Part shown: piece by piece, positions 3,433-59,260 of the stretch
Layout: every line of letters starts with the position of its first letter
Numbering within the stretch: position 1 is the first letter of the stretch
Source: Candidatus Parcubacteria bacterium
GTDB lineage: Bacteria > Patescibacteriota > Patescibacteriia > UBA1558 > GWA2-36-10
DNA length: 64,000 nucleotides
Reading direction: 5' to 3'
Assembly (NCBI GenBank): GCA_018664825.1
Contig: JABJNO010000025.1
Coordinates: 3,022-67,021 of the forward strand
Notes under the pieces: generated by a model
What the model was told of the DNA's origin: nothing
The model's input: the letters and a program-made list of their open reading frames with translations, nothing else
Databases searched by the model: none
Position numbers and translations under genes: made by a program

Positions 3433-3447
3433 AAAATAAAAAAAAAT

Positions 3448-5070: not shown

Positions 5071-5106
5071 TATTTATATATAAAAATAAAAATAATTTTT
5101 TAAAAA

Positions 5107-31349: not shown

Positions 31350-31568
31350 TAGTTATTTTGTTCCGCACCCAGTAAGAGTGGCGGGATTCATAGGTACATA
31401 ATAGGTTAAATAGTGGATTTAGGCAACTTGCACAACCTTGACTTAAGGTTTTGGATATGTTAGAGTATTCAAAGTCTAATAGATCTTTATTTTAATTAAC
31501 CAAGTCTGTTTTGCTTTATGCAAAGCAACCCTTGATTCATCAAGAAATCAAGGTAATTAGGTAGATTT

Positions 31569-32060
31569 ATGAATTACGAACTATCTTTTATTATCAGTTC
31601 TGCAATTCCAGAAACAGAACATGATAAAGTACAACAAGAGATTTTGAGCTACATAGAAAAAGCTGGAGCCAAAATTTCTAAACAGCCACAAGTGATTGGC
31701 CGTCGAAAATTAGCTTATCCTATCAAAAAGCAAAAACATGGGTTTTATGTGTTTTTGGAATTTGAAACAGAGGATAAAACAGGTTTTGTAGAAATGGAAA
31801 CCAAGATTAAACATAATCCTGGTATTTTACGACATTTGCTTATCAAAAAAGATGTAAAAGTGTCAGCTGTGGCACCAGAAGTCAAACAAGCAAAGCCTAC
31901 CAAGCCAGCTTTTGAAGCCAAGCCAAAAACAGAGGAGAAGTCCGAGGAGAAGCCTCAAGAATCAGAAGCAAAGCCTGTTACTGAGGAAATCAAGCTTGAC
32001 CTAGGAGATATCGACAAAAGATTGGATGAGATACTGGGTTCTGATCCAAAAGTAGACTAA
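31569..32060 (+). CDS. rpsF: 30S ribosomal protein S6 (with Lys/Glu-rich C-terminal extension)
   Basis: MNYELSFIISSAIPE...GRRKLAYPIKKQKHGFYVFLEFE. Conserved rpsF-ssb-rpsR order. Confidence 0.85.
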   Translation: MNYELSFIISSAIPETEHDKVQQEILSYIEKAGAKISKQPQVIGRRKLAYPIKKQKHGFYVFLEFETEDKTGFVEMETKIKHNPGILRHLLIKKDVKVSAVAPEVKQAKPTKPAFEAKPKTEEKSEEKPQESEAKPVTEEIKLDLGDIDKRLDEILGSDPKVD

Positions 32061-33356: not shown

Positions 33357-33370
33357 CTTTTTATAAAAAT

Positions 33371-33410
33371 AACCTTCGAGGTTAAAAAAACCTCGAAGGT
33401 TATTTTTTTT
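33371..33410 (+). repeat. REP palindrome pair acting as the efp terminator
   Basis: AACCTTCGAGGTT (33371-33383), AAAAA loop, AACCTCGAAGGTT (33389-33401), then T-run. Same 13-mer as the repeats flanking the RAYT gene at 42.5-43.2 kb. Confidence 0.8.
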
Positions 33411-33480: not shown

Positions 33481-35019
33481 ATGCCAACATTAAATAATAC
33501 TAAAAATCAAACTTCTTCAAAAGATAATTGGTCTGATAATTTATTAATCAAGGATAAAGGTGGTAAATTGCACCACTTGAATTCATCAAATAAAGATAAA
33601 AATGTTGGTTCTTTTAGTAAAAAAAGTACAGAAATTGATCATAATTTGAGCTTAGCACCAGCTGATGATAGTTTTTCTGCCAATCAACTTATCGATGGTA
33701 CAGCCGAGACCAGGGCGGATCTTGTGTTTCACCCAGAAGATGATCAACAACTAAAAAAAATTGCCAAAAATATACCTCTCGATGGTAGTAAAAAATACAG
33801 CATTGATAAAATAGCGGAGAGGATAATCGAAAAGCAAGGATTAAAATTTGATACTGGAAATAAAAAGTTATTTATTGATATTCTTTTTGATTTTTTTCGT
33901 AATCGTAAAAAAGCATCAGGAGTACGAGAAATTTTATCTAGTAAAATAAAATCTGCAAAAAAGAGCCTAGCCTTGGAAGTTGTTGATAATATAGTATCCG
34001 TGATCAAAGGTATAAAGGCAAAAGTAGATTCTCAAAGTGGTCTAGTGGTTAGGATGTCAGAAATAGAAAAACCTCCTGTTAAAATTCAACCAGAAATTAC
34101 ACAAAAAATATTACCAGAAATTGGACCACCAAAAGTTGTTTATGATTTGGACGAAGAGGCAGATACTAGTGATATTCAAGAATTGGCTAAATTTGTTGGT
34201 GATATTCCAAAAGAAAAATTTGAAATTCCGGATAAAAAAGCACCTATTGTCAAAGATTTGGAGTCAGATTTGAAAGAAACATTGGAAATAGAAAAAGAGT
34301 TACCCAAAGATATTGAACAAGCTCCAAAGAAAGAAGAAGAGGAAAAGCCTCAGCCTATTCCTGTCAAAATTGTTGAGCCGCCAAAGCAGGAGCCAAAAGA
34401 AGACGTGGTCCTTGCCAAGGTTGCAGATGACAAGAAAGAACCAGGTGGAGGATTTGAAATTCCGGATAAAAAAGCACCTATTGTCAAAGGCTCTGGACAA
34501 ATCAAAGATCAGCCAAAACCGATTAAAAGTTCAGCTACACACGCCAAGGGACTTGAACAAATCAAAAAAGAACCAGTGACCGCTTCTTTGCCAAAAGTTG
34601 TTCGTCCTATGCAGGATGCTAAAAATCAGATTAGTGATGTAAAAACTCAACCAAAACCAGCACCAATGGCACCAAGAGCTGTTCCTAAACATGCTTTGAG
34701 TGGACCGGTGCAAGAGTTACAGGTTTTGGATTTGCACAATTGGAGAAATTTGGGTGACGATGCAGATAGTAGGGCTGAGAGATTGATGGAAAAGATAAAT
34801 ATGTTAGAAGAAGAATCGTTTACCAAAAAAGCCCAAGGTATAGATGCTTGGAGAAAGAGTCCTGTTCATCAAGAATATTTGGAGTTAGGGGCAGAGAGTA
34901 TGGGTCAGGGTAAAGAAGTATCAACCTTGATTACCGAATATGAGCAACAAGGTAAAGAAACCTTATCAATAGAAGAATTTGCCGCTGTATCTGATTTAAA
35001 TAAAAAATTAAGGTTCTAG
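33481..35019 (+). CDS. hypothetical Lys/Pro/Glu-rich low-complexity protein with internal duplicated FEIPDKKAPIVK segment
   Basis: Long ORF. Repeats at aa ~240 and ~330. Immediately upstream of the T4SS-like genes. Confidence 0.4.
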   Translation: MPTLNNTKNQTSSKDNWSDNLLIKDKGGKLHHLNSSNKDKNVGSFSKKSTEIDHNLSLAPADDSFSANQLIDGTAETRADLVFHPEDDQQLKKIAKNIPLDGSKKYSIDKIAERIIEKQGLKFDTGNKKLFIDILFDFFRNRKKASGVREILSSKIKSAKKSLALEVVDNIVSVIKGIKAKVDSQSGLVVRMSEIEKPPVKIQPEITQKILPEIGPPKVVYDLDEEADTSDIQELAKFVGDIPKEKFEIPDKKAPIVKDLESDLKETLEIEKELPKDIEQAPKKEEEEKPQPIPVKIVEPPKQEPKEDVVLAKVADDKKEPGGGFEIPDKKAPIVKGSGQIKDQPKPIKSSATHAKGLEQIKKEPVTASLPKVVRPMQDAKNQISDVKTQPKPAPMAPRAVPKHALSGPVQELQVLDLHNWRNLGDDADSRAERLMEKINMLEEESFTKKAQGIDAWRKSPVHQEYLELGAESMGQGKEVSTLITEYEQQGKETLSIEEFAAVSDLNKKLRF

Positions 35020-35023
35020 ATTT

Positions 35024-35485
35024 ATGCAAGATAAATTTATAGTGCCACAATTTATTGATTCAGAGGATAAGATTTGGGGACCGATTACTGTTCGTCAGTT
35101 TATTCTGGTTATTGTTGGAGGTTTATTTATTTTTTTAGCCTATAAATTTTCAGATTTTACTTTGTTTTTATTGCAAACTATTTCGATAGCTATATTTGTT
35201 GGTTTATTTGCTTTTTATAGAGTAAATGGAGCTCCTTTTCATCTTTTTGCCATAAATGTAATTCAAACTTATAAAAAACCAAAAATTAGAGTTTGGTTAA
35301 AAGAGTATATTCGAATAGAGCAAATAAAAAGCAAAGAAGAGGGAAAGGTAGAAAAAATTATTCCTCGTAGACCTTTTATTGCCCAAAGCAAACTTTCGGA
35401 GTTATCTTTGATTATAGATACGGGTGGCATTTATAAAGGAGAACAAAGGGCCAATGGTTTAAATAATGTAGAAGTAAAGAAATAA
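35024..35485 (+). CDS. PrgI-family (VirB3-like) small membrane protein of type IV secretion systems
   Basis: N-terminus FIVPQFIDSEDKIWGPITVRQFILVIVGGLFIFL matches the PrgI pattern (VPKDI..E.KI..GLT.RQ followed by two TM helices). Sits directly before VirB4. Confidence 0.55.
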   Translation: MQDKFIVPQFIDSEDKIWGPITVRQFILVIVGGLFIFLAYKFSDFTLFLLQTISIAIFVGLFAFYRVNGAPFHLFAINVIQTYKKPKIRVWLKEYIRIEQIKSKEEGKVEKIIPRRPFIAQSKLSELSLIIDTGGIYKGEQRANGLNNVEVKK

Positions 35486-35495
35486 TTGATAATAT

Positions 35496-36176
35496 ATGAA
35501 GAACAAAAAATTAGCAGGAGGCAAGCCAAATCAATCAACTCAAAAATATTTAGATATTGCAGAAATTCGAGATGATATCGTTATTTTAAATGACGGTACT
35601 GTTCGGGGAGTATTGTTGATATCATCTATCAATTTTGATTTAAAATCTGAAGATGAACAAAGAGCGATTATTGGTGGGTATGTTAGTTTTTTAAACACCC
35701 TGGATTATCCTTTGCAGATAGTTATCCAATCTAGGCCTTTGAATATTGATGATTATTTAGATAGGTTAAAAAAGGTAGAAAAAGAGCAGACCAATGAATC
35801 TCTTCGTATGCAGACAGTTGATTATCGACAATTTATCAATGAGCTGCTTACTTTGGAAAAGATTATGAGTAAAAAGTTTTTTGTAGTTGTACCTTATCGT
35901 CCAGTTAGTGACAAAAAGAAAGGCTTTATTGATAGATTTGGGTCTGTATTTTCTACAGCCAAAGTAGTCCAGTTGAGCCGTAAAAGATTTGATGAATTTA
36001 ATAGCAAAGTAAATAAACGTTGTGATTTTGTGATGTCTGGTTTGGCTAGTCTTGGTCTCAGGAGTCAGAGACTAAATACTCAGGCCTTGATTGAACTTTA
36101 TTACAATAGTTATAACCCAGATTTATTCCAAAGACAGCCTTTGGAAACAATGGATAAATTAAGAGTGGAAACATAA
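35496..36176 (+). CDS. VirB4/TrbE N-terminal domain encoded as a separate ORF
   Basis: YLDIAEIRDDIVILNDGTVRGVLLISSINFDLKSEDEQRAIIGGYVSFLNTLDYPLQIVIQS aligns with the N-terminus of VirB4 proteins (YLPY..HLSDHIVLLEDGS...I.G..FE...). Stop TAA at 36174-36176, next ATG at 36178. Confidence 0.55.
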   Translation: MKNKKLAGGKPNQSTQKYLDIAEIRDDIVILNDGTVRGVLLISSINFDLKSEDEQRAIIGGYVSFLNTLDYPLQIVIQSRPLNIDDYLDRLKKVEKEQTNESLRMQTVDYRQFINELLTLEKIMSKKFFVVVPYRPVSDKKKGFIDRFGSVFSTAKVVQLSRKRFDEFNSKVNKRCDFVMSGLASLGLRSQRLNTQALIELYYNSYNPDLFQRQPLETMDKLRVET

Positions 36177-36177
36177 A

Positions 36178-38109
36178 ATGTTTGGATTTAAAAAAATAAA
36201 AGAAGCAACCTCTAATCAGGCTAAGCAAGCAGGGCAAGTTGCCAACGCGTCTCAATCTGCTTTACCTCCCACCAAAGAAAACAAGGGGCAGGTAATGGAA
36301 AAAGACAAGGCTTTGTTGGAGGCAGAAAAAGTATTTAGAGAAGGCGTTGTAAGTGTGCGTGATGTGATAGCACCAGCTGCTTTCAAAGTAGATAGTAATT
36401 TTTTGAGACTCAATGATGTCTATGTGCGGACATTGTTTGTGATGACTTATCCTAGGTATGTGACCATTGGTTGGTTTGCTCCGATTATCAACGAGAGCCT
36501 GACCTTGGATATTGCTATGTTCTTTTATCCTCTGGATATTCAGTTGGTTTTGAAGCAATTGAGAAATAAAGTAGGTACAATGGAGGCTCAGATTATTTCT
36601 GATCATGAAAAAGGTGCTCCGCGTGATCCGATTGCCGAAACTGCCCTTCGAGACATTGAAGGTCTTAGAGATGGCTTGAGCCAGGGTACAGAAAAGTTTT
36701 TTCAATTTTCTTTGTATGTCACTATTTATTCAAAAGATAAAGATGAGTTAGAAACAGCTACTGATCGTATTGAAAATTTATTGGGCATGCAGTTGATTTA
36801 CTCTAGAAAATCTTTGTTTCAATCAGAGCAGGGATTCAACTCTACTTTGCCCTTGGGTAATGATGAATTATCTATTTCTACAAATATGAATAGTTCGCCG
36901 ATTGCATCTTCTTTTCCTTTTGTGTCTAGTGAGCTTACTTCAGATGAGGGTATTTTGTACGGTATAAATAGACATAACAATAGTTTGATATTATTTGATA
37001 GATTTAGCTTGCAAAACGCCAATATGGTAGTTTTTGCTACATCTGGTGCTGGTAAGAGTTATGCTATTAAGCTAGAAGTATTACGTTCAATGATGATAGG
37101 TTCGGATGTGATTATTATTGATCCAGAAAATGAATATAGACATCTTTCAGAAGCTGTAAATGGTGCTTATATCAATGTTTCTCTAAATTCAGAAAGTAAA
37201 CTAAACCCTTTTGATTTACCAAGAGGAGTAGGAGGAGAAAGTAAGCCAGAGGATATATTGAGATCTGCGGTCATCACCTTGAAAGGTTTGATCCGTTTGA
37301 TGATTGGTGATGTGACAAATGCAGAAGATTCTCTGCTTGATAGGGCATTGCTCGAAACTTATGCCAAAAAAGATATTACAGCAAGTAGTGACCTTTCAAA
37401 TATAGAACCACCTTTGATGTCTGACCTTGAAGAGGTATTACTTAGTATGGAAGGCGGAGAAGATATGGCCTTGCGCATCAAAAAATATACCGAAGGTACT
37501 TTTTCTGGACTATTCAATAGCCCAACCAATGTTCAGGTTGATAATCAGCTGATTATTTTTAGTATTAGAGATCTAGAAGATGAGCTGAGGCCTATTGCGA
37601 TGTATGTAATTGTAAATTATATTTGGAATATTATCCGTAGTGAGCTCAAACGAAGGATTTTGGTAGTTGATGAGGCCTGGATTATGATGAGGCACGAAGA
37701 TAGTGCCAAATTTATGTTTGCCCTAGTAAAACGTTGTCGAAAATATTATCTAGGTGTGACGACTATTACCCAGGATGTAAATGATTTTCTTACCTCTCCA
37801 TTTGGTAATGCTATTGTGACCAACTCTTCTATGCAAATGTTGCTCAAACAATCACCCGCATCTATTGGTCTTATTCAAAAGACATTTATGCTTACTGAGG
37901 GTGAAAAATATCTATTATTGGAATCTGGTGTTGGTGAAGGAATATTTTTTGCCGGATCAAAGCATGCGGCTATAAAGATACAAGCTTCGTATACAGAACA
38001 TCAGCTAATTACTTCTGACCCTCGTCAATTGTTGGAAATTGAAGAAGCCAAAAAAGAGTTTGAAGAGGCAATGATGCTGGAAGCAGAAGGTGGTACTACC
38101 AATGTTTAG
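36178..38109 (+). CDS. virB4: VirB4/TraC-family type IV secretion ATPase
   Basis: Gram-positive-type VirB4 N-region (VYVRTLFVMTYPRYVTIGWFAPI), Walker A ATSGAGKSYAIK, Walker B ILVVDEAW (DEAW hallmark of VirB4), C-terminal TITQD motif. Confidence 0.85.
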   Translation: MFGFKKIKEATSNQAKQAGQVANASQSALPPTKENKGQVMEKDKALLEAEKVFREGVVSVRDVIAPAAFKVDSNFLRLNDVYVRTLFVMTYPRYVTIGWFAPIINESLTLDIAMFFYPLDIQLVLKQLRNKVGTMEAQIISDHEKGAPRDPIAETALRDIEGLRDGLSQGTEKFFQFSLYVTIYSKDKDELETATDRIENLLGMQLIYSRKSLFQSEQGFNSTLPLGNDELSISTNMNSSPIASSFPFVSSELTSDEGILYGINRHNNSLILFDRFSLQNANMVVFATSGAGKSYAIKLEVLRSMMIGSDVIIIDPENEYRHLSEAVNGAYINVSLNSESKLNPFDLPRGVGGESKPEDILRSAVITLKGLIRLMIGDVTNAEDSLLDRALLETYAKKDITASSDLSNIEPPLMSDLEEVLLSMEGGEDMALRIKKYTEGTFSGLFNSPTNVQVDNQLIIFSIRDLEDELRPIAMYVIVNYIWNIIRSELKRRILVVDEAWIMMRHEDSAKFMFALVKRCRKYYLGVTTITQDVNDFLTSPFGNAIVTNSSMQMLLKQSPASIGLIQKTFMLTEGEKYLLLESGVGEGIFFAGSKHAAIKIQASYTEHQLITSDPRQLLEIEEAKKEFEEAMMLEAEGGTTNV

Positions 38110-38134
38110 TTTTAATAAAAAATAACATAAATAT

Positions 38135-38707
38135 ATGGATGAACAACAAAAGAAAAAAGCTTTTTGGTTGGCAGTAATAATTTTGATTGTTATTGGAGTA
38201 TTATTTTTCTTCCTAGTAATTAGGGACAAGAATAATACAGAGATTGAGGCAGAGGGGGATGAAGGAATACCGGAGTTTCAAGTACCTAGCGCAAACATCA
38301 AATTTGATCCAGAATTGCCACCCGTTGCTACCAATGCAGAGTTTTCAGCTATTAATTTGGCAAAAAATTATGTAGAGAGACTTGGTAGCTGGTCTACAGA
38401 CAATCAACTGCACAATTTGGAAGAATTAATACCACTTAGTTCAGCCAAGATGAGAATCAACTTGGATAGTGTAGAGGCAGATTACAGTAATGATGATTTT
38501 AGTGGTATTACAACCAAGAGTTTGACTACTGAGGTGTTATCCATGGATGAAAAATCTGCTGAGATAATAGTTGGTACACAGAGGATAGCTACAAGGGAAG
38601 AAAAGTCAAAGAAAGGTGTAACCGAAAATGTATATACACAAGAAGCAAAGGTAAGTCTGATAAAATCAGGCAATACTTGGCTAGTTGATGAAGTTGAGTG
38701 GCAATAA
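38135..38707 (+). CDS. N-terminally anchored hypothetical protein (possible VirB8/TcpC-like bitopic component)
   Basis: Single TM (FWLAVIILIVIGVLFFFLVI) plus ~150-aa extracytoplasmic domain. Position right after VirB4. Confidence 0.3.
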   Translation: MDEQQKKKAFWLAVIILIVIGVLFFFLVIRDKNNTEIEAEGDEGIPEFQVPSANIKFDPELPPVATNAEFSAINLAKNYVERLGSWSTDNQLHNLEELIPLSSAKMRINLDSVEADYSNDDFSGITTKSLTTEVLSMDEKSAEIIVGTQRIATREEKSKKGVTENVYTQEAKVSLIKSGNTWLVDEVEWQ

Positions 38708-38731
38708 TTTATAATTATTAAGAATAAGAAT

Positions 38732-39022
38732 ATGGCAGAGGTACAGATCAGGGAATTGGAAAAAGAAATAAAAGACCAATTAGATAGAATTTATAAATTA
38801 TTGGATGAAAAGAAAAGTGCGGAGTTTATTAAGATAGAGTATAAAAGGGTTGTTGAGTTAATCTCTCAAAAGTATTTATTGATGAAGGATGAGATGCAAA
38901 AGAGAAAAAATCAAACAGACCCAACCGAATTTGCTAAACAAATGGCAGGCTTGGATGCACATTATAAAGATGATGTAATTGCAATTGCTGTCGGCATTGA
39001 TAATACATTAGAAGGTAAATAA
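38732..39022 (+). CDS. small coiled-coil hypothetical protein
   Basis: 96-aa ORF with charged heptad-like sequence in T4SS-like cluster. Confidence 0.3.
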   Translation: MAEVQIRELEKEIKDQLDRIYKLLDEKKSAEFIKIEYKRVVELISQKYLLMKDEMQKRKNQTDPTEFAKQMAGLDAHYKDDVIAIAVGIDNTLEGK

Positions 39023-39037
39023 TTTTAGACAGAAGCT

Positions 39038-40135
39038 ATGGTTGGTCCTGGGAACATTTCAATGCCAATGCAGTCCTATCTACAAGGTGCTTTGGGTACT
39101 ATGGTAGGTGAGGTTTTGAGTGATGTCATGATAAGTGATTATGATATCCAGGCTTTTAAAGAGGGTGGCAAAAAAGATATAATGAAAACGGCTCTAGTGA
39201 GGGCCGTTGGTAAACTTACATCTTCTTTGACCTATGGCATGGTTCATGGTGGCGATATTCAAAATTATCGAGAAACTGGCTCTTTGAAAGAAACTTTGAT
39301 GAAAAAGGACCTGGTCGGAATGGCTCTGACTGCGGCTACTATAGCAATGCCTCAATTGGCTATAGCCACAGCAGTAGCTAGGAGAGTTGGTCCAGAGATT
39401 ACAGCTGAAGATATAGCCAAAAAAGCAGGCGAAGCAAAGGCTGGTATCCAGAGCAGGGTGATGGATTTAGAGATGGATCTTATGGAGGAGGATCCGGAGA
39501 TTGCAGATGCTTATGATCCCAACTTGGATCCGGACTTTCAAAAATCTAGAGAGGCAGGTGGTTATGTGCCTCCTGGTAATGAGAGGACAGTAGGGCGTCA
39601 GCTGAGAGCGATGCAAAAAGGTTCTGGTGATGATGACAATCAACCAGATTCAGGTGAGGACTCAGGTGAGGGTAAGGAGGGTGCATCACCCGATGGAAAT
39701 GAACAAAGTAAAATGAGAGCCTTAAAAGGAGAAAAGAGTAAGGCTCAAGCCAAAAAAAAGAAACAAGCTCAAGCCAAAGCCAAGAAACAACTTGAGGCAA
39801 AGATAAAAAAGAAGATAACCGACATGGCTCTTAAGGCAGGATTTAGGACGGCGGCAGCTGGCTCAGCAGCCACGTTGATAGGGCTTGTTGTTACTTATAT
39901 ATTGTGGGCTATTCAAATTATTGCTGGTAACTGGCTCAAATCACAAATAATTCCACCACTTGGTTTAGGAGAGAGGATTGCATTTGGTGTTGTTACATTT
40001 ATTATGGTACTTGCAGTTATTATCGCTTTTATTTTTGTCATGTTGACCTTTGTGTTGATGAATGGATGGGTTATAGCACTTAGTTATTTTGGTTCAGAGA
40101 TGGTATTATTTTTTAAAGATTTTTTAGGAATGTAA
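39038..40135 (+). CDS. hypothetical protein with Lys-rich region and C-terminal multi-TM anchor
   Basis: KAQAKKKKQAQAKAKKQLEAKIKKK stretch followed by 3 hydrophobic helices at the C-terminus. Confidence 0.4.
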   Translation: MVGPGNISMPMQSYLQGALGTMVGEVLSDVMISDYDIQAFKEGGKKDIMKTALVRAVGKLTSSLTYGMVHGGDIQNYRETGSLKETLMKKDLVGMALTAATIAMPQLAIATAVARRVGPEITAEDIAKKAGEAKAGIQSRVMDLEMDLMEEDPEIADAYDPNLDPDFQKSREAGGYVPPGNERTVGRQLRAMQKGSGDDDNQPDSGEDSGEGKEGASPDGNEQSKMRALKGEKSKAQAKKKKQAQAKAKKQLEAKIKKKITDMALKAGFRTAAAGSAATLIGLVVTYILWAIQIIAGNWLKSQIIPPLGLGERIAFGVVTFIMVLAVIIAFIFVMLTFVLMNGWVIALSYFGSEMVLFFKDFLGM

Positions 40136-40154
40136 TATAAATTAAAATTTTTAT

Positions 40155-41378
40155 ATGGATATTAAAAAATTGTTAGTAGTAATTGGATTTATAGTCCTAG
40201 TAGCATTAGTAGGCTTTGCTTTGTATTGGGTATTTTTTAAACAACCAAACGAAGAAAGAATATTACAAAATTACAACGGTGGAACAATACCTTCGGGCAA
40301 TGAGGGGAATCTAAATGTTGTAAATGATGACAATGCTAATAATGATCAAACTTTACCTTGGCAGGAATATTTGGAGGACAAAGTGTCGCCAGTTGCTGCT
40401 GGAGGACTTACCCAAGTGACTAGAATCACTGATTCAGAAGTCAGTGGGGTCATTTCTGGTATAGATGGAATACAATATTATGATGAAGAGGCTCAACAAT
40501 TTTATCGTATAAACGAAAAAGGGGAGGCAGAATTGATGTCCAACAACAAATTTTTTCAAGTTGAAAATGTAAATTGGGCCAAGTCAGGCAATAAGGCAAT
40601 ATTAGAATATCCGGATGGTTCAAATATTTTGTATAATTTTTCAAATGGAAAACAAGTGACTTTGCCACCGGAGTTGGAAGATTTTGGCTTTAATACTATT
40701 GGTAATCAAATAACAGCCAAGTGGATTGGTAATAATGATGATAACAATTGGTTGATAGCTGCCAATGATGATGGTTCTGGTATGTTTTTGTTGGAGCCTT
40801 TGGGTGATCAAGCACACAACACTCAGATGGGATTTTCTCCTGACAATCAGGTAGCTGCTTTACATAGAAAATATATTGATGCTCAGAGACAACAGGTATT
40901 TCCAATAGGTCTACATGGGGAAAACCTAAAAGCCTTTACAGTCAATGGATCGGGCTTTGTATCCGAATGGTCCCCAGAAGGAAATTCTATGATTTATAGT
41001 GTTTACCATGAAGATACAGATTATATGCCGAGTATGTATGTGACCAAAGGTAGTACATCTGAATTGGGAGATATAAAGATATCTTTGAATGTGGCTACAT
41101 GGCCTGAAAAATGTACTTTTTCAGGAGAAAGTACACTGTATTGTGCGGTTCCTCAGGGCTTACCTAGGGGCGCTGGTATGTATCCAGAAATAGCCCAGGA
41201 ATATCCTGATAATTTTTATCATATAGATTTGGAAAGTGGTACAAAAACATTAATTGCTAGTCCTATAGGAGACAGTGCTAGTTATTCGGCCAATGGTTTG
41301 TCTGTATCTGACGATGGATCATTTTTGTATTTTATTGATCAAAATACAGGCTTATTACAAAGTATTAGATTAAAATAA
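40155..41378 (+). CDS. N-terminally anchored beta-propeller (TolB/PD40-like repeat) protein
   Basis: TM (LLVVIGFIVLVALVGFALYWVFF). Repeated W/F-SP(D/E)G motifs (NWAKSGNKAILEY, GFSPDNQVAALH, EWSPEGNSMIYSV). Confidence 0.45.
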   Translation: MDIKKLLVVIGFIVLVALVGFALYWVFFKQPNEERILQNYNGGTIPSGNEGNLNVVNDDNANNDQTLPWQEYLEDKVSPVAAGGLTQVTRITDSEVSGVISGIDGIQYYDEEAQQFYRINEKGEAELMSNNKFFQVENVNWAKSGNKAILEYPDGSNILYNFSNGKQVTLPPELEDFGFNTIGNQITAKWIGNNDDNNWLIAANDDGSGMFLLEPLGDQAHNTQMGFSPDNQVAALHRKYIDAQRQQVFPIGLHGENLKAFTVNGSGFVSEWSPEGNSMIYSVYHEDTDYMPSMYVTKGSTSELGDIKISLNVATWPEKCTFSGESTLYCAVPQGLPRGAGMYPEIAQEYPDNFYHIDLESGTKTLIASPIGDSASYSANGLSVSDDGSFLYFIDQNTGLLQSIRLK

Positions 41379-41384
41379 TATATT

Positions 41385-42440
41385 ATGAAAAAAACAATTT
41401 TTGGACTATTATTTATTTCTTTTTTTGCATTGTTTTTTGTCTTCACTGTTAGTGAGGTCAATGCAGAGATTGTTTTCGAACCAAATGTCAGAATACCAGG
41501 TACCTCATTTGGAGGATCGGTAATAATTTCTGCCGAAGATAACTCCATAGGCCTTTACATAAAGGCTCTGTACGAATATGGAGCGGTATTTGTAGGAGCG
41601 GTAGCTATGTTTATGCTTGTCTTTGCTGGCTGGCAGTGGCTGATGGCTGCTGGCTCATCAGACAAAATTGGACGAGCCAAAGAAACAATAAATGGTACCT
41701 TGATAGGGTTGATATTGTTGTTTGGTGGTTATTTATTGTTATCACAAATCAGTACAAATTTGGTTGAGTTCAAGGATATCAATATTGTACCATTGGATTT
41801 GGAGACTACTAGTGATGAGACTTGCGATACCATGAATCAAAGGATTAAGAATGGCACAGCTCCTGATTATATACCTACAACACTTATAGATCCTGCCTCA
41901 AAGTATGCTTGCGGTAAGCCTTATCCTGTATGGAAAACAAATGAAGATGGTACGACTGATTTTAATAATAAAGAGGCAGATTGTACGTATAACCTTTCTA
42001 GCATAGACTCATCAAGATGTAGAGCCAAAAAGAACGGAGAGGAATTATGGAGTAAAGATTGTGTTTCTGTGCCTGATCCAGCCTATCCTTGTAAACAGTT
42101 GTCTGGTAATTGTACTTGGATTTTTTCTGGTAACAATAGGCCAGGTAACAAATGTGAAAATTATTTGAATAAGGATTGGTGTATTTCTAACTATTGTCGT
42201 ACTGAGCATCCAGAATATGAATGTGGCCTTGATCAAAACAATCCTAGAGCAAAATGTGAGCTCTTGGACAATGTCTGGTGTAATAGTAGTGAATATTGTG
42301 ATTTTGACGGTTCAAATAAATGGTGTTGCGAGGATAGCGGTGGTACTGATTACTGTCGTATAGACAAAACAGTTGATAGTGATAGAGGTAATCCGGATAA
42401 CAACAATGATAATATAACAGATAATTGTAGAACTATATAA
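41385..42440 (+). CDS. VirB2/TrbC-like pilin domain fused to a C-terminal cysteine-rich domain
   Basis: Signal peptide, then two hydrophobic helices separated by a short basic loop (AVFVGAVAMFMLVFAGWQWLMAAG - SSDKIGRAKETINGT - LIGLILLFGGYLLLSQI), as in VirB2 pilins. Followed by ~210 aa with >20 Cys. Confidence 0.4.
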   Translation: MKKTIFGLLFISFFALFFVFTVSEVNAEIVFEPNVRIPGTSFGGSVIISAEDNSIGLYIKALYEYGAVFVGAVAMFMLVFAGWQWLMAAGSSDKIGRAKETINGTLIGLILLFGGYLLLSQISTNLVEFKDINIVPLDLETTSDETCDTMNQRIKNGTAPDYIPTTLIDPASKYACGKPYPVWKTNEDGTTDFNNKEADCTYNLSSIDSSRCRAKKNGEELWSKDCVSVPDPAYPCKQLSGNCTWIFSGNNRPGNKCENYLNKDWCISNYCRTEHPEYECGLDQNNPRAKCELLDNVWCNSSEYCDFDGSNKWCCEDSGGTDYCRIDKTVDSDRGNPDNNNDNITDNCRTI

Positions 42441-42449
42441 AATAAAAAA

Positions 42450-42474
42450 CTACCCAGAGATGGGTAGTTTTTTT
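42450..42474 (+). terminator. rho-independent terminator
   Basis: CTACCCA-GAGA-TGGGTAG hairpin followed by T7. Confidence 0.65.
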
Positions 42475-42508
42475 AACCTTCGAGGTTGGATGTCCAACCT
42501 CGAAGGTT
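42475..42508. repeat. REP palindrome pair (5' flank of RAYT)
   Basis: AACCTTCGAGGTTGG-ATGT-CCAACCTCGAAGGTT, a 15-bp perfect stem. An additional single copy TGTCCAACCTCGAAGGTT sits at 42563-42580. Confidence 0.8.
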
Positions 42509-42619
42509 AAATTTGACGTAAATTAATTTATAGTCTACTCTAAAAAAGAAGAAAAGCGATTTTGTCCAACCTCGAAGGTTAGATAAGGTCGGTTATTTAT
42601 ATAATTTACCTTATTTTTT

Positions 42620-43189
42620 ATGCCAAATAAATCAAGGAACATTTATGCAGGTAACTATTACCATATTTATAATAGAGCAGTAGAGAAGAGAACTATATTT
42701 TATAGTGAAAGTGATTATGAATATTTTATTTCTAAAGCTATCTTATATAAAGAAATGACGGAGGTAAAGATATTGGCTTATTGTATTTTACCAAACCATT
42801 TTCATTTTTTATTGAAAGAACCAAAATCAACCTCGAAGGTTGAAATCTCGGCAATTTCTAAATTTATTTCTCTTTTGTCTAATTCATATACAAAACATTT
42901 TAACTTAACCAAGGAACATTCTGGTAGGCTGTTTCAGGGGCCATTCAAGTCTAAGTTAGTAGATGATGATAGTTATTTGAAAGTTTTATTAAACTATATA
43001 AATTTGAATCATTTAAAACATAAAATAACTGACAAAGTTAATGACTGGCCTTATAGTTCACATCATAATTATGTAGGGAAGTGGAAATATAATTTGATTG
43101 GGAAAGATTGTATAGTTGATTTTGAAGAATATAAACAGGTTATAAATTATTATAAAAATAGTTTATCTAGTTTATACGAAGAATTTTAA
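42620..43189 (+). mobile_element. REP-associated tyrosine transposase (RAYT, IS200/IS605-like Y1 HuH transposase)
   Basis: HuH motif LPNHFHFLL and C-terminal YINLNHLKH...NDWPYSS (catalytic Tyr, NPV-like motif and WPxSS typical of TnpA_REP). Gene contains one REP copy internally (42829-42841) and its stop codon overlaps another (43189-43201). Confidence 0.75.
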
Positions 43190-43201
43190 CCTCGAAGGTT
43201 G
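43189..43201. repeat. REP copy (3' flank of RAYT, between RAYT and recG)
   Basis: AACCTCGAAGGTT. Confidence 0.7.
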
Positions 43202-46018: not shown

Positions 46019-46106
<88 letters not shown>

Positions 46107-46243
46107 TTCGATTCGCTTTTGCTTTGCAAAAGCTCACTCATGGTCTACGGTGCTAAAATAGCACCTCCAACCAGTTTATTTATAGAATCGAATGTCCTGA
46201 GCGAAGTCGAAGGACAGGAGACATTGAAATATTATTATTGCTA

Positions 46244-49455: not shown

Positions 49456-49613
49456 AAAATAATTATACTAATATCGTTCTTCTGAGTCAAGTGAAGAATG
49501 TTCTTAAAAGAATCTCTTATTTTTTCAAATGACTTGATAATGCACGAGGATCTATTGATTTATAAATAAGAATAGTGTAGAATCTCCTTACCAGAATTAA
49601 CGGTTGGCGGTTC

Positions 49614-49741
49614 CAGCACGAGGAAGCCCGCCATTCGACTCGTCATAACTTTGTTATGACTCGCTCATAGTCTTCGACCACTCTTTGCTTTTGTAAATAC
49701 TTAGTGTCGAATGTTCTGAGTGAGCAGAGCGAACCAAGGGG
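49614..49741. repeat. ~128-bp structured repeat, copy A (upstream of thrS)
   Basis: GGCGG..CAGC..GCCCGCCATTCGACTCGTCATAACTTTGTTATGACTCGCTCAT(A/G)GTCTTCGACCACTCTTTGCTTTTGTAAATACTTAGTGTCGAATGT(T/C)CTGAGTGAGCAGAGCGAACCAAGGGG. 2 mismatches vs copy B over the 116-bp core. Confidence 0.85.
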
Positions 49742-49803
49742 CACGAGAATTTCGTGCTAGCACAATGAACTAAGCACCCAAATTGGGTGTTTTTGTCTTG
49801 CTA

Positions 49804-50040: not shown

Positions 50041-51795
50041 ATGCAAAATAACGAAAAAATACACAAAATACGTCATTCATTGTCTCATATCTTGGCTATG
50101 GCCATATTACGTAAATTTCCTGATGCTCAATTGGCCATTGGGCCAGTTATTGACAATGGCTTTTATTATGACTTCCTTTTGCCAGATAGTTTGTCTGAGG
50201 CTGATTTACCAAAGGTAGAAAAAGAAATGAAGAAAATAATTTCTCAGAAAATAAAATTTGAGAAAAGTGTTATTAGTAGAGAAGAGGCCTTAAAGAAATA
50301 TGAAGAACAAAATTTTAAAGTAGAGCTAATCGATGATTTGCCAAAAGACGAAAAAATAAGCTTTTATTCTTCTGGAGACTTTACTGATCTTTGCGCTGGG
50401 CCTCATGTAGAATTTAGTACCGAGATCAATCCCAAAGCTTTTAAATTGACTTCTACTGCTGGTGCTTATTGGCGTGGTGATGAAAACAGGCAAATGTTGA
50501 CTCGTGTGTATGGTGTAGCTTTTGAAAATAAAGAAGAGTTAGATGAATACCTAGCTGTTCTAGAAGAGGCCAAAAAGCGTGATCACAGAAAACTTGGTAA
50601 AGAATTAGATTTATTTTCTTTTTCAGATTTAGTGGGTTCTGGTCTGCCACTTTGGAGTCCCAAAGGAACAGTTATTCGTAATGAATTACAAAAGGCTCTA
50701 CTTGAAATTAGTACAAAATACGGTGTCACTCCGGTGACTATTCCTCATATTGCTAAACGAAAATTATATGAAATATCTGGACATGCTGAAAAATTTTCTA
50801 ATGAATTAATAAAAGTTATTAGTCATTATGGTGAATTTGTTATGAAGCCAGTCAATTGCCCTCATCATACCCAAATATATGATTCTCGACCACGTAGCTA
50901 TCGTGATCTACCGATTCGCTACATGGAATCAACCATGCAATATCGTGATGAAAAACCAGGAGAAATATCTGGTCTGACCAGAGTTCGTTCTATCACAGTA
51001 GATGATGGTCATACCTTTTGCCTACCCGATCAAATCAAACAAGAGGCCAAAAATTTAGCAAGTATTATCAAAGAATTCTACGGTAATTTAGGTTTATTTG
51101 GCCAGCACTGGGTTTCACTTTCAGTTCGTGATCCAGAAAAACCAGAAGCTTATATTGGCGACTTAAAGGATTGGGAAAAAAGCGAAAAAATGCTAGCTGA
51201 ATTATCTGACGAATTAAAACTTAATGCTAAACGTGTAGAGGGCGAAGCTGCTATATATGGGCCTAAGTTAGACTATATGTTTAAAGATTCATTAGGTCGA
51301 GAATGGCAATTAGCTACTATTCAGCTTGATTTTGCTATGCCCAAAAGATTTGAATTGACCTATACAGATAAAGATGGCAAAAATAAAACACCCGTCATGA
51401 TTCATCGGGCTATTCTTGGTTCCTATGAAAGATTTTTGGCTATATTAATTGAGCATTATGCGGGAGCTTTTCCAGTTTGGCTAGCCCCAGTACAGATAAA
51501 AATTATTTCTGTTGGAGAAGGTCATATTGAATATTGTCAAAAATTGGCTACTAAATTTATGGCCGAGAACATACGTGTTGAGCTAGATACTTCTGATGAA
51601 ACAGTCGGCAACAAAATACGTAAATCATCTCAGGAAAAGATATCATACACCTTGGTAATTGGTGACAAGGAGATGGATTCTAAAGATTTGGCTGTTAGAG
51701 TACGTGGTAAAAAAGATTTATTAAATATTGACCAAGAAGAATTTATCACAAAAATAAAAACAAACATAAAAAATCGTAGTTTGGAGCTTTTATAA
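50041..51795 (+). CDS. thrS: threonyl-tRNA synthetase (lacks N-terminal TGS domain)
   Basis: Class II motifs. Editing-domain start RHSLSHILAMAI...AIGPVIDNGFYYDF. HRAILGSYERFLAILIEHYAGAFPVWLAPVQ. C-terminal anticodon-binding domain. Confidence 0.9.
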   Translation: MQNNEKIHKIRHSLSHILAMAILRKFPDAQLAIGPVIDNGFYYDFLLPDSLSEADLPKVEKEMKKIISQKIKFEKSVISREEALKKYEEQNFKVELIDDLPKDEKISFYSSGDFTDLCAGPHVEFSTEINPKAFKLTSTAGAYWRGDENRQMLTRVYGVAFENKEELDEYLAVLEEAKKRDHRKLGKELDLFSFSDLVGSGLPLWSPKGTVIRNELQKALLEISTKYGVTPVTIPHIAKRKLYEISGHAEKFSNELIKVISHYGEFVMKPVNCPHHTQIYDSRPRSYRDLPIRYMESTMQYRDEKPGEISGLTRVRSITVDDGHTFCLPDQIKQEAKNLASIIKEFYGNLGLFGQHWVSLSVRDPEKPEAYIGDLKDWEKSEKMLAELSDELKLNAKRVEGEAAIYGPKLDYMFKDSLGREWQLATIQLDFAMPKRFELTYTDKDGKNKTPVMIHRAILGSYERFLAILIEHYAGAFPVWLAPVQIKIISVGEGHIEYCQKLATKFMAENIRVELDTSDETVGNKIRKSSQEKISYTLVIGDKEMDSKDLAVRVRGKKDLLNIDQEEFITKIKTNIKNRSLELL

Positions 51796-51896
51796 TTAAT
51801 TGTTTAGATCCAAGCAAATAATAAAAAATAAGGTGCTCTAATATTTTTTGATTTATAAATAAAAATCCCTTAGATAGGGTTAACTTATGGCGGCTT

Positions 51897-52024
51897 CAGC
51901 CCGATGTAGCCCGCCATTCGACTCGTCATAACTTTGTTATGACTCGCTCATGGTCTTCGACCACTCTTTGCTTTTGTAAATACTTAGTGTCGAATGTCCT
52001 GAGTGAGCAGAGCGAACCAAGGGG
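51897..52024. repeat. ~128-bp structured repeat, copy B (downstream of thrS)
   Basis: 98% identical to copy A over the 116-bp core. Starts with hairpin ATGGCGG...CCGCCAT. Confidence 0.85.
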
Positions 52025-52111
52025 TAGGAATACCATTGTTTGTGGTATTTTTTGTTTACAAACAGATTAATATTAGCTATGATAATTATATTGAGTATTT
52101 AAAATAAAAAT

Positions 52112-57005: not shown

Positions 57006-57154
57006 AATAATAAATTTAATTGTTAAAGCAATTAATATAATTTTACTAAATCTTAGAGCTTTTGGCAATCTTTGAAATATTTTTATTTCAGACTGAAATG
57101 TGGTATAATATATCAAGAAATCGGAACAAAAAAATAAAAGTTAAAAATAAAAGT

Positions 57155-59260
57155 ATGTTCAAAAAAATCAATCATTGGCATTTGTCAATTTTAGTACTAA
57201 TAGCTTCGATTTTTGGTTTAATATTGGTACAAAAAGTGGTATTTGCACAATGGGAAGATCCGATTGGTTTACCTGGAGAATCAGGAGATTGGCATTTTGT
57301 AATCAATCCATTGGCTGAGGATTTAGAAATGAATAATTTTAAAATTTATGATACAGACCTAAGTATTGATCCTGCAGCTACTGACAAAATTTTGGTAAAT
57401 GACGGAAATATCAGGGTGACCAATGGACAGATTTGTCTCAATGGAGAGTGTCAGATTACCTGGCCATCTGGCGGGGGAAGTGGTGGATATTGGACAGAAA
57501 ATCCAGCTGACAGTACAGAAATTTATTATAGTGCTGGTAATGTAGGCATCGGCACATCCGATCCACTTCACAATCTATCTATTGTAAATACTACAGGAAA
57601 TCCAGAAATTACCTTTGATGATTTGGATGGAGATACTCATTGGGGCATTTACCATGATACAGGTAGCGAAGAATTGAGATTTTGGAATGATGGTACAAAT
57701 ATTTTATCTTTGAGAACTAATGGCTCAGCTGAGATGGGCTACAATACTGTCGCTACCGGAAACAATGCTATGGCTATTGGTATTGGTGCTCAAGCAACGG
57801 GAAATTATTCGGTTGCTATTGGTAATAGTGCTAGAGCTAGTGGGCAGACTTCTTTTGCTAGTGGATATCAAAGTAGGGCCACTCAAGACACTTCGACTGC
57901 TATAGGTTATTGGACAGTAGCTGACGGCCCTCAATCTGTAGCTATGGGCAGTCAGGCTAGCACGACTGCTTATTATGCAGTTGCTATAGGTAGATTGGTA
58001 GAGGCCAATGGCGCGGCTTCTGTGGCCATGGGTATAAGTTCAGTGGCTAATAGTAGTGGTTCAGTGGCTATAGGGCATCAAGTAACTGCCAATGGAGGTA
58101 GTTCTACGGCTATGGGCTACCAGACACGGGCAGTTGGAAATTATTCTTTTGCCGCAGGCTATGGCTCAGATGCAGTTGGAAATTATTCTTTTGTTGGTGG
58201 ACAAGACAACTGGGCTAGTGGTGCTGGTTCTACGGCTCTTGGTAGAGGAAATACAGCTAGCGGTGAAAAATCTTTTGCTGTTGGATTCCAAAATACAGCT
58301 AGCGGTCACGAATCAGTGGCTATGGGCAATGGTACTAGAGCTGAAGGTAATAACGCATTTTCTATGGGCGAAGATGCAGTAGCCGCGGGGCTAAATTCTA
58401 TAGCTATGGGACAAAATATACTCGCAAGTGGAATCAACTCTACAGTTATAGGCAGGGACGCAATTTCTCTTGGTATGGGTTCCGTTGCTCTTGGTCGTTA
58501 TTCAGAGGCTAGCGGTGATTATGCATTTGTATTTGGAGGAGGAGATAATATATCAGATACTGTGGCTAGTGGTAACTATTCTATAGCCATGGGTTTCAAA
58601 ACAGAGGCTACCAACAGTTATGCTGTAGCCATGGGTCAGGGCTCAATAGCTAGCGGAGAACATTCTGTAGCCATGGGAAGAAATACAAGGGCCTCAGGAG
58701 CCGCTTCTTTTGCCAATGGATATCAGGCAAACGCTGTAGGAGGAGTTTCTTTTGCTAGTGGTTGGATAGTAGATGCTGAAGGTCAATTTTCTACAGCAAT
58801 GGGCTATCAAACAAATGCTATGGGAGATTATTCTACGGCATTGGGTGTTTATGCTGATGCTAATCATAACAATTCTTATGTCATAGGCTTGGATGCGGGT
58901 AGTACTACTAGGTGTGAAAGTAGTATTGAAAATCAGTTTAAAGTTTGTGGTGATACATCTTTGGAGGGTGAGCTTTGTTTGAATGGAGATTGCATCAGTG
59001 ATTGGTCTACAGCAAGTAAATTAGAAGATTATAATATTGTTTGTACAGCTCCTAGTTTTGGTGGGGCGTGCTCTGTTAGTTGTGCGCCTGGCTTTGTACT
59101 TACATCTTGGGAATGTACAGATCATCTTGGTGGTTATTTACCGGGCGGAATTTGCATTCAAGGAGTCACAGAGGGTAGCATAATAGACACAGTAAGCCCT
59201 TTTGGTTGTCCAGATTCTCATGGTGATTGTGTTGGTAATGGAGTCTGCAGTAGACTTTAA
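57155..59260 (+). CDS. secreted surface/adhesin-like protein with Hep_Hag-type (YadA-head-like) repeats and Cys-containing C-terminal domain
   Basis: Leader MFKKINHWHLSILVLIASIFGLILVQKVVFAQWEDP. Tail-fibre-like motif GNVGIGTSDPLHNLSIV. About 20 copies of S/N-x-A-x-G-x-x-A-x-A-x-G repeats (NNAMAIGIGAQATGNYSVAIGNSARASGQTSFASG...). ICLNGECQITW and CLNGDCISDW motifs. Start at ATG 57155. Confidence 0.6.
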   Translation: MFKKINHWHLSILVLIASIFGLILVQKVVFAQWEDPIGLPGESGDWHFVINPLAEDLEMNNFKIYDTDLSIDPAATDKILVNDGNIRVTNGQICLNGECQITWPSGGGSGGYWTENPADSTEIYYSAGNVGIGTSDPLHNLSIVNTTGNPEITFDDLDGDTHWGIYHDTGSEELRFWNDGTNILSLRTNGSAEMGYNTVATGNNAMAIGIGAQATGNYSVAIGNSARASGQTSFASGYQSRATQDTSTAIGYWTVADGPQSVAMGSQASTTAYYAVAIGRLVEANGAASVAMGISSVANSSGSVAIGHQVTANGGSSTAMGYQTRAVGNYSFAAGYGSDAVGNYSFVGGQDNWASGAGSTALGRGNTASGEKSFAVGFQNTASGHESVAMGNGTRAEGNNAFSMGEDAVAAGLNSIAMGQNILASGINSTVIGRDAISLGMGSVALGRYSEASGDYAFVFGGGDNISDTVASGNYSIAMGFKTEATNSYAVAMGQGSIASGEHSVAMGRNTRASGAASFANGYQANAVGGVSFASGWIVDAEGQFSTAMGYQTNAMGDYSTALGVYADANHNNSYVIGLDAGSTTRCESSIENQFKVCGDTSLEGELCLNGDCISDWSTASKLEDYNIVCTAPSFGGACSVSCAPGFVLTSWECTDHLGGYLPGGICIQGVTEGSIIDTVSPFGCPDSHGDCVGNGVCSRL

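Follow-up and report, generated by a model that had tools for sequence, protein, structure and literature searches.

A RAYT-like Y1/HuH enzyme gene among 13-nt hairpins without a GTAG foot in a Candidatus Parcubacteria bacterium: a probable REPtron-like locus

Gene and protein

The DNA analysed here, referred to as the window, is a stretch of 64,000 nucleotides from a Candidatus Parcubacteria bacterium (contig JABJNO010000025.1 of assembly GCA_018664825.1, positions 3,022 to 67,021, forward strand). On its plus strand, at 42620..43189, it carries the gene of a 189-aa class-2 Y1/HuH enzyme that resembles the tyrosine transposases associated with repetitive extragenic palindromes (REPs), known as RAYTs or TnpA_REP, and the gene is surrounded and interrupted by copies of a 13-nt hairpin. 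A reading of the letters alone, called here the sequence-only reading, had described the gene as a RAYT embedded in its own REPs. Our analysis indicates that the locus is probably REPtron-like, with an enzyme gene set among its cognate hairpins, although the hairpins lack the tetranucleotide foot of canonical REPs.

The reading frame contains the motifs NHFHFLL (aa 59-65), YINLN (aa 126-130) and WPYSS (aa 143-147), which bears out the HuH and tyrosine signatures first noticed in it. The two histidines of the HuH motif (H60 and H62), the catalytic tyrosine Y126 and N130 were invariant across an alignment of 26 homologs. The earlier assignment to the Y1 transposases also held: the match to Pfam PF01797 (Y1_Tnp, 'Transposase IS200 like') reached 36.2 bits (gathering score 23) and ran over aa 13-128, equivalent to profile positions 6-119 of 121. 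The Pfam search found no second domain in the 189-aa protein. When a profile of the 26 homologs was searched against the PDB, the best match was E. coli TnpA_REP (4ER8, E = 2.2e-13), whereas transposases of the IS200/IS605 family reached ~5e-3 only (ISDra2 transposase 2XM3, 5e-3).

The AlphaFold2 model of the enzyme was confident, with a predicted local distance difference test score (pLDDT) of 86.3 and a predicted template modelling score (pTM) of 0.83. It places the HuH motif on strand E60-66, the next helix at H78-97 and Y126 on helix H117-128. The top Foldseek match in the PDB was again 4ER8 (E = 1.3e-9, target-normalised TM score 0.74, compared with ~0.6 for IS608 and ISDra2), and 30 of the top 30 matches were TnpA_REP or IS200/IS605 family transposases. 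The tyrosine motif is Y-x3-N, the class-2 type according to published signatures. By sequence and fold the enzyme is nearer to TnpA_REP than to the TnpA of IS200/IS605, and the motifs and model identify it as a class-2, RAYT-like Y1/HuH protein with predicted active-site residues intact. Its homologs are overwhelmingly from Patescibacteria. Several are labelled 'REP element-mobilizing transposase RayT' by JGI and plain 'transposase' by NCBI, whose current rules would give the window gene no more than the latter name.

Hairpin units in the window

Exact copies of the 13-mer AACCTTCGAGGTT and its complement AACCTCGAAGGTT were counted on both strands of the window. Seven were found, five at the gene, which is bracketed by them as had been proposed, and two as an inverted doublet at the terminator position of efp. 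Within the 13-mer, a 5-bp stem (AACCT/AGGTT) encloses a loop of 3 nt, so that the unit by itself is nearly palindromic and its two 'orientations' differ in the loop alone (TCG versus CGA).

The first two units at the gene form an upstream doublet of the kind known as a REPIN (an inverted pair of REPs), which spans 42475..42508 and has no strand of its own; they lie at 42475-42487 (+, loop TCG) and 42496-42508 (-, loop CGA). The perfect inverted pair seen there by the sequence-only reading was present, with arms of 16 nt (42475-42490 and 42493-42508) and not 15. The remaining three units are single and lie in the gene's orientation, and all three 13-mers match AACCTTCGAGGTT on the minus strand. 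One, TCC-AACCT.CGA.AGGTT at 42565..42580, is probably in the 5' untranslated region (UTR), 52 nt before the ATG; its 13-mer is at 42568-42580, and the start of 42563 given previously had taken in flanking bases. Another, TC-AACCT.CGA.AGGTT-GA at 42827..42843, lies within the coding sequence (CDS), where its 13-mer (42829-42841) was exact as reported and is extended to a 7-bp stem. This unit encodes S70-T-S-K-V-E75 and, in the model, falls in the loop (aa 67-77, of lower confidence) that joins the HuH strand to the following helix. The last unit does overlap the stop codon, at 43188..43200 instead of the 43189-43201 first given: the TAA (43187-43189) ends in the two A's with which the unit opens, and 3 nt separate the unit from the end of the convergent recG. 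Relative to the gene start the units are thus offset by -145, -124 and -52, plus the one over the stop codon.

Folded as single-stranded DNA (ssDNA), a single unit was weak (-2.1 kcal/mol) and the 7-bp copy in the CDS reached -4.9 kcal/mol. The upstream doublet gave -19.7 kcal/mol (z = -9.1) and the efp doublet -19.4 kcal/mol; both refold as long hairpins of about -19.5 kcal/mol with z ~ -9.

Such units could be chance palindromes in AT-rich DNA, the copy inside the gene being then a conserved T-S-K-V peptide, and both the shortness of the unit and the low G+C content of the window (36.9%) speak for this. In a shuffle test that allowed up to two mismatches, however, 8 matches were found against 1.3 expected, and none of 100 shuffles reached 8; the seven exact copies alone exceed that expectation, and for exact matches we estimate that chance would give ~0.002.

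Covariation of internal and flanking hairpins

The locus was compared with 18 homolog loci besides the window, of which 8 had been fetched by protein identity and 10 through the DNA doublet pattern alone. In most of the 18 the gene was flanked by 13-nt hairpins with a 5-bp stem and a 3-nt loop. The unit varied between the nine lineages in which flanking and internal copies were set side by side, and in seven of these the internal unit had at least the stem in common with its own flanks. The window has AACCT.TCG/CGA at its flanks and AACCT.CGA in the CDS. The locus of the 70% identical ortholog (L131) has the same flanking pair, with AACCT.CGG at -45 and again AACCT.CGG in the CDS, and the paralog in that genome (L133) has AACCC.CTA and AACCC.GAC outside and AACCC.CTG inside. 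L266 carries AACCC.GTC upstream, over the stop codon and in the CDS. An internal doublet was found in the other three: GACCT.CGC plus GACCT.GCG in L137 (flanks GACCT.TCG/CGA), AACGT.CCG/CGG in L267 and AACCT.CCA/TGG in L058 (Gracilimonas), the last two identical to their flanks. In L135 (flanks AACCT.CGA/TCG) the internal GACCT.CGA.AGGTC matches in the loop and its outer pair is changed in a compensatory manner, and L011 (Saccharicrinis) has an internal doublet, AACCT.GAC/GTC, with no flanking units within the locus.

The copies in the CDS are single or double, lie in different reading frames and vary in length, and the encoded peptides vary accordingly (STSKVE, DNPSGW, PTSQVERPARS, ENLQGFKNLGG, and NPTGW at the insertion site of the P0027 lineage). 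All of them are located directly downstream of the HuH strand, where relatives such as P0060 lack an insertion. The conserved thing is therefore a nucleic-acid hairpin and not a peptide, and this hairpin evolves together with the flanking copies. This covariation of the internal hairpin with the flanks is the strongest result of the analysis and is clearly documented here. It also bears on the chance explanation, to which we assign next to no probability: compensatory stem changes preserve the internal hairpin, and the unit is read in different frames to give TSKV, NPSGW, NLQG or PTSQV according to lineage.

The unit supplies the stop codon in five lineages (the window, L131, L026, L049 and L266), and a doublet upstream of the gene is also present in L131, L135 and L137. 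In L007, a strain of the window species, the counterpart of 43188-43200 (at 1906-1918) has a loop changed from CGA to CGT, with stem and protein unchanged; this variation within the population sits in the loop. A further RAYT homolog, at ~3446-3973 of L182 (JGI20214J51088_10000451), has exact TCG/CGA doublets on both sides; its frame is broken by a stop codon directly behind the HuH motif (NHFHLFVKQTLDD*TISKF), so that the gene is a pseudogene or else is recoded.

Between the upstream doublet and the start codon, two other sequences were conserved. The block GAAGAAAAGCGAT (42548..42560, plus strand) is purine-rich and resembles a ribosome-binding site; its core, AAGAAAAG, was invariant in five aligned loci and the remainder nearly so, and L266 and L267 have the block as well. 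It lies ~60 nt from the ATG in the window, L131, L133 and L266, with one hairpin unit and the second hairpin described below in between, and abuts the ATG in L137 and L267, from which the 5' UTR unit and the equivalent of 42581-42619 are missing, the ATG directly following the block. A second hairpin, read from the sequence as ATAAGGT(18 nt)ACCTTAT at 42583..42614 on the plus strand, ends 5 nt before the ATG, and its arms are kept in L131, L133 and L266 with differing loop lengths. No Shine-Dalgarno-like sequence was seen near the start codon of the enzyme gene. The stretch 42548-42619 may be a structured 5' UTR that controls translation.

The 351-aa gene upstream has a hairpin of its own at 42450..42467 (plus strand), CTACCCA-GAGA-TGGGTAG followed by a T-run, with A- and T-run flanks. 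The terminator scan called this palindrome terminator-like on the minus strand (42473-42444), and the plus-strand reading, a stem followed by seven T's, is our own from the sequence. Since that gene has its own hairpin, the upstream doublet is not needed as its terminator. Sub-threshold Rfam matches at 42.44-42.53 kb (Phe_leader, RNAI and microRNA precursors) were dismissed as generic hairpin matches; across the whole window, three tRNAs alone reached the gathering score.

Genomic context and inheritance

The enzyme gene is present in one copy in the 64 kb. The identical protein was found on 22 contigs, and in all 10 of the places shown the order was the 351-aa gene, the RAYT-like gene and the convergent recG. 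Genes from both ends of the window match the species to NCBI MAG GCA_018670855.1 and to a 254-kb JGI contig, while no link was found between the window and the 860-kb contig Ga0233448_1000001 (L152). Orthologs with 70% (P0002) and 62% (P0027) identity retain the same synteny, downstream of efp and a block resembling a type IV secretion system (T4SS). The enzyme gene has diverged to a similar extent as its neighbours, the identities to the genome of the 70% ortholog being 67% for RecG, 76% for EF-P and 75% for SSB. No tnpB lies adjacent to the enzyme gene among the window's open reading frames or in the neighbourhoods shown. The gene, single in the 64 kb, thus behaves as vertically inherited and domesticated, unlike an insertion sequence, and such behaviour has been described for RAYTs (PMC5581495).

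These data bear on the possibility that the whole unit is an autonomous insertion sequence of the IS200/IS605 type, transposing with the flanking hairpins as its left and right ends. The Pfam Y1_Tnp match, the same-orientation hairpins on both sides of the gene (42568 and 43188) and the two paralogs 11 kb apart in a related genome would fit such an element. The gene is, however, single in the 64 kb and constant in position in the contigs shown, its synteny is kept in orthologs of only 62-70% identity, and hairpins also occur apart from it. The relative's two paralogs, which differ in their hairpin stems and are ~53% identical to the window protein, thus do not represent copies from a recent transposition. 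The protein, moreover, is closer to TnpA_REP than to IS200, IS608 or ISDra2 by sequence and fold, has Y-x3-N and not Y-x3-Q, and has no tnpB beside it. We consider an autonomous insertion sequence highly improbable, and this reading and that of chance palindromes are essentially excluded.

In the related genome of ~1 Mb, contig Ga0180009_10000001 (L131 and L133) has the larger block rpsF-ssb-rpsR-efp-T4SS-like genes between its two divergent RAYT paralogs, which lie in inverted orientation, one with AACCT-type and the other with AACCC-type hairpins. The second paralog is missing from the window genome, where the interval between the methyltransferase gene and rpsF (31349-31569) showed no AACC[TC]...[AG]GGTT relic.

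Distal doublet

The two units away from the gene form a doublet at 33365..33407 (plus strand; units 33371-33383, +, and 33389-33401, -), flanked by an A-run and a T-run, in the position of the efp terminator. The scan described it as terminator-like, with a 19-pair stem, a 5-nt loop and a T tail. In the genome of the ortholog, an unrelated, ordinary terminator hairpin (CAAGC...GCTTG plus T's) occupies the same site between conserved flanks and precedes the same TATAAT-containing promoter-like sequence. The doublet thus lies at the very site expected of a terminator, and it has taken the place of a conventional one there or has given way to one. The sequence-only reading had made this pair the terminator of efp; the position, the scan and the ortholog's terminator agree with this, and the activity itself is presumed.

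The efp doublet and the doublet upstream of the enzyme gene bracket the ~9-kb T4SS-like block (33481..42440), which contains genes for PrgI, a TraC-like protein and a VirB4-like ATPase, and unknown genes. A composite transposon, with the block between the doublets, was ruled out by the ortholog genome, which keeps the block without the doublet on the efp side.

Related doublets in genomes and metagenomes

A search for AACCTNNNAGGTT-N(0-30)-AACCTNNNAGGTT across 185,579 species genomes returned at least 120 loci, compared with ~30 chance matches that we estimate for the whole collection. Among the ~160 matches listed, 108 had a gap of 5 nt, and the two loops were usually reverse complements of each other. 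The hosts among them were mainly Bacteroidota, together with relatives of Beggiatoa, Ignavibacteria, Omnitrophota, Chloroflexota and others, and Patescibacteria carry the same architecture. The exact TCG/CGA doublet was found in metagenomes at no fewer than 120 loci; with 26 specified bases, our estimate of the chance expectation is ~0.01. Of the 120 metagenome loci listed, none overlaps the window.

Although these loci were found by the doublet pattern alone, a homolog of the enzyme was encoded in the fetched stretch at 8 of the 120 loci listed from genomes and at 6 of the 120 from metagenomes, which is far above chance for a single-copy gene. In the matches listed, doublets often directly abut the homolog genes, and 14% of the doublets lie inside open frames of at least 120 codons, compared with 77% of random positions, so they are mostly extragenic. 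The AACCT/AGGTT stem was imposed by the scan pattern. Because loci found by protein carry other stems (AACCC, GACCT, AACGT and GACTT), the constant feature of the class is its architecture and not the stem sequence.

The exact TCG/CGA doublet also exists in a longer form, an element of 47-48 nt with a spacer of 21-23 nt (L212, L153, L023, L157, L176, L228 and L254). In L212 (Ga0265292_1000728, 3429-5115) these long-spacer doublets occur in arrays with a 99-nt period, and in L153 the longer form lies at 55-277. The long spacer itself is conserved in several Ignavibacteria-like contigs (..AATACCACCAACGATGTGTC), in both orientations.

Other repeats in the window

Four further sets of repeats were observed in the window. 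A perfect 38-nt direct repeat (34218-34255 and 34452-34489, 234 nt apart) lies in the first gene of the T4SS-like block (33481..35019). The threonyl-tRNA synthetase gene (50041..51795) lies between two 150-nt direct repeats that are 92% identical (49597-49746 and 51880-52029). The repeats have a 49-nt core with ~72% identity to 46101-46149, which begins at the 3' end of tRNA-Ser(tga), and they have no Rfam match; they could be att-like remnants of an integration event at a tRNA gene, or a repeated leader. The reading frame 57062..59260 contains, at 57752-58860, imperfect coding repeats of the G-x-x-S-x-A-M-G type spaced at multiples of 42 nt, and its 732-aa product, without a Pfam match, is probably a surface repeat protein. 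The motif GAYACNGATGGTGATGG is repeated at 4633-4737, 7558-7662 and 16969-17007 in three different genes of large secreted proteins, and encodes D-T-D-G-D-G, as in thrombospondin type 3-like calcium-binding repeats.

Interpretation

The observations are best explained, and we think probably so, by a REPtron-like locus in which a single-copy class-2 Y1/HuH enzyme acts on cognate hairpins, cutting and rejoining DNA beside the folded unit. For binding, cleavage and mobilisation we reason by analogy with the TnpA_REP of E. coli, Stenotrophomonas and Marinomonas. The enzyme would bind the folded hairpin on ssDNA and would cleave and rejoin the DNA next to it through Y126, with a metal ion held by H60 and H62 (and N130). 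Cutting and rejoining would spread and homogenise the hairpins, which occur singly or as inverted doublets able to refold to a hairpin of ~16-19 bp. Spreading would account for the doublet at the efp terminator position, and homogenisation or re-insertion would keep the copies in the 5' UTR, the CDS and the stop codon matched to the flanks while the sequence drifts by lineage. The copy in the CDS is an in-frame insertion, and the protein tolerates it because the site, past the HuH strand and ahead of the helix that follows, is a peripheral loop.

Several results weigh against this explanation. The first concerns membership in the RAYT family. The score of the protein with the NCBIfam RAYT equivalog NF047646 was 67.5 bits, below the cutoff of 80, and for this reason the enzyme is not a clean member of the curated family; the earlier assignment to the RAYTs therefore stands as regards nearest fold and profile (TnpA_REP) and not as regards this model. 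Nine relatives from Patescibacteria and Bacteroidota scored 51-74 bits, all nine under the cutoff. The second concerns recognition. None of the seven units in the window has a GT[AG]G foot beside it, the flanks being tcc, atc, ttt or A/T runs, and each of the three systems assayed in vitro needed the foot of canonical REPs for cleavage (PMC8266576). In E. coli TnpA_REP the contacts to GTAG are made by W94, Q95, E100, H101 and R104, which align to F105, Q106, S111, K112 and D115, with only the Q kept. Because the foot is absent and four of the five contact residues are replaced, the rules of recognition and cleavage predicted for this enzyme must differ from those of GTAG-guided TnpA_REP. The REP/REPIN-RAYT arrangement first proposed is thus retained as a Y1 enzyme gene among cognate palindromes with doublets, and needs revision as to the foot and its contacts.

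The third is the limited dispersal. In ~72 kb of sequence from the species the efp doublet is the only occurrence of units away from the gene, the ~8 kb past the window ends containing no further ones. The efp intergenic region of 124 nt was identical in 10 of 10 contigs of the species with identical EF-P; the doublet is therefore fixed, without polymorphism in these contigs, and gives no sign of recent mobility. In a related contig of 847 kb, one or more additional doublets lie apart from the RAYT genes (L205).

The main alternative draws on this last point. The hairpins may have been selected as structures, as terminators, stabilisers of the 5' UTR and stop codon or translation controls, and homogenised by short-tract gene conversion, the protein being a domesticated nuclease that has another role in the host and no longer mobilises them. 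The one distal doublet in ~72 kb is invariant and lies exactly where a terminator is needed, three units in the same orientation are found in the gene's own transcript (5' UTR, CDS and stop), a further conserved hairpin precedes the ATG, and the gene stays at one locus and diverges in the manner of a housekeeping gene. Gene conversion alone, however, poorly explains internal units that differ in copy number, length and frame and yet match their own flanks. The extragenic doublets are thousands-fold over-represented in many phyla, often beside homologs, which suggests active spreading at least in relatives, and the catalytic residues are invariant. We consider selection for structure without mobilisation unlikely, and retain the REPtron-like locus as the preferred explanation.

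A further proposal is more tentative, and we would sooner expect it to fail than to hold. The 13-nt hairpins may constitute a REP superfamily of several phyla, absent from the searchable literature, with a fixed architecture (5-bp stem, 3-nt loop and, in doublets, usually a 5-nt gap) and lacking a GTAG guide. The enzymes that recognise them would form a sister group to the curated RAYTs, and the one in the window would keep rewriting the copies in its own transcript, in the 5' UTR, in the surface loop of the CDS and at the stop codon. If so, the enzyme would act in cis on its own gene, as self-targeting or autoregulation, and a ~1-Mb genome with only a few copies would offer a minimal natural setting in which to study REP copying and the choice of cleavage sites without GTAG.

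How REPs and REPINs are copied is an unsettled question in the field. The drift of the hairpin, with matching retained within each locus, provides a comparative handle on recognition, as to stem versus loop and as to which residues track the change. REPtron-type systems would also be extended to the reduced genomes of Patescibacteria, in which repeats are scarce and all copies can be counted. Practical consequences are modest: such hairpins are located at terminator positions, fragment assemblies and may mislead gene callers.

Relation to known systems

REPtrons, in which tnpA_REP is flanked by its own REPs, and the co-evolution of RAYTs and REPs are established (PMC6006769, PMC3733652, PMC3116915), and in-frame REP insertions in tnpA_REP and the cleavage of ssDNA hairpins by TnpA_REP have been documented (PMC6006769, PMC8266576). 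Six hairpin sequences of the AACCT.NNN.AGGTT type were found in no searchable literature, and no unit of this type appears in the published REP table for subclasses 2.2-2.6. Among the papers that a combined search listed, none dealt with RAYT or TnpA_REP in Patescibacteria, and the two that contained both a RAYT term and a candidate phyla radiation term were studies of primer coverage of small-subunit ribosomal RNA.

The insertion sequences of the IS200/IS605 family (IS608 and ISDra2 TnpA) have in common with the enzyme the HuH/Y1 fold and the recognition of sub-terminal ssDNA hairpins. They have Y-x3-Q, are multicopy and mobile and often carry tnpB, in contrast to the Y-x3-N, single copy and fixed locus seen here, and their similarity in sequence and fold is weaker. 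The TIRYT-like proteins of subclass 2.1 are ~238 aa long with a C-terminal helix-turn-helix and have no REPs, whereas the enzyme has 189 aa, no helix-turn-helix and REP-like units. Its motifs NHFH, FQ, YINLN(H/P) and SS nevertheless resemble signature 2.1b, while its insertion is 2.4-like, so the assignment is mixed and is a comparison of motifs only.

E. coli TnpA_REP (RAYT group 2, Quentin subclass 2.2; 4ER8) is the best match by profile and fold. The HuH/Tyr core fold and a Tyr helix of the Y-x3-N-P type are common to both, as is a single-copy gene among its own palindromes, including inverted doublets, with palindromes at gene ends elsewhere too. The two proteins are ~20% identical across the structural alignment. 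The E. coli REPs are ~35 nt long and bulged, with an essential 5' GTAG foot, compared with a perfect 5-bp hairpin of 13 nt and no foot here, and the E. coli gene has no internal hairpin, whereas the window gene has one.

An internal copy is characteristic of subclass 2.4 (RAYT group 4 of Bertels 2017), which occurs in Cyanobacteria, Bacteroidetes and scattered phyla and has REPs in frame inside tnpA_REP (Quentin et al. 2018). The sequence-only reading had singled out a REP inside the coding sequence as noteworthy; the trait was already published for this subclass. The likeness is close, with an in-frame REP of variable length and sequence between beta3 (HuH) and alphaC, ~190 aa, the HuH motif NH[IFV]H and an occurrence outside Proteobacteria. 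The differences are that the REPs of subclass 2.4 are GT[AG]G-footed with stems of ~6 to 13 bp, or 'double-foot', that its signatures are WQ and YIxNNP where the window protein has FQ and YINLNH (homologs YINLNP; a comparison of motifs only), and that the distance from HuH to Y is 66 aa here against a median of 88. An internal REP is thus not new in principle; a class of GTAG-less hairpins spanning several phyla was not found in the literature searched.

The size of the hairpin has its closest counterpart in the group 3 REPtron Mb of Marinomonas MWYL1 (Corneloup et al. 2021, PMC8266576), whose small, perfect 5-bp palindromic REPs are processed by the cognate TnpA_REP. A 5-bp stem is therefore enough for a real substrate. 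The Marinomonas REP keeps GTAG two bases from the stem as a guide for CT/CA cleavage, in contrast to the units of the window, which have no conserved tetranucleotide beside them. From their sequence, these units are best described as candidate non-canonical REPs, GTAG-less mini-hairpins with a 5-bp stem and a 3-nt loop, and the locus and its relatives as a widespread sister group of the known systems, without GTAG and with a much smaller hairpin.

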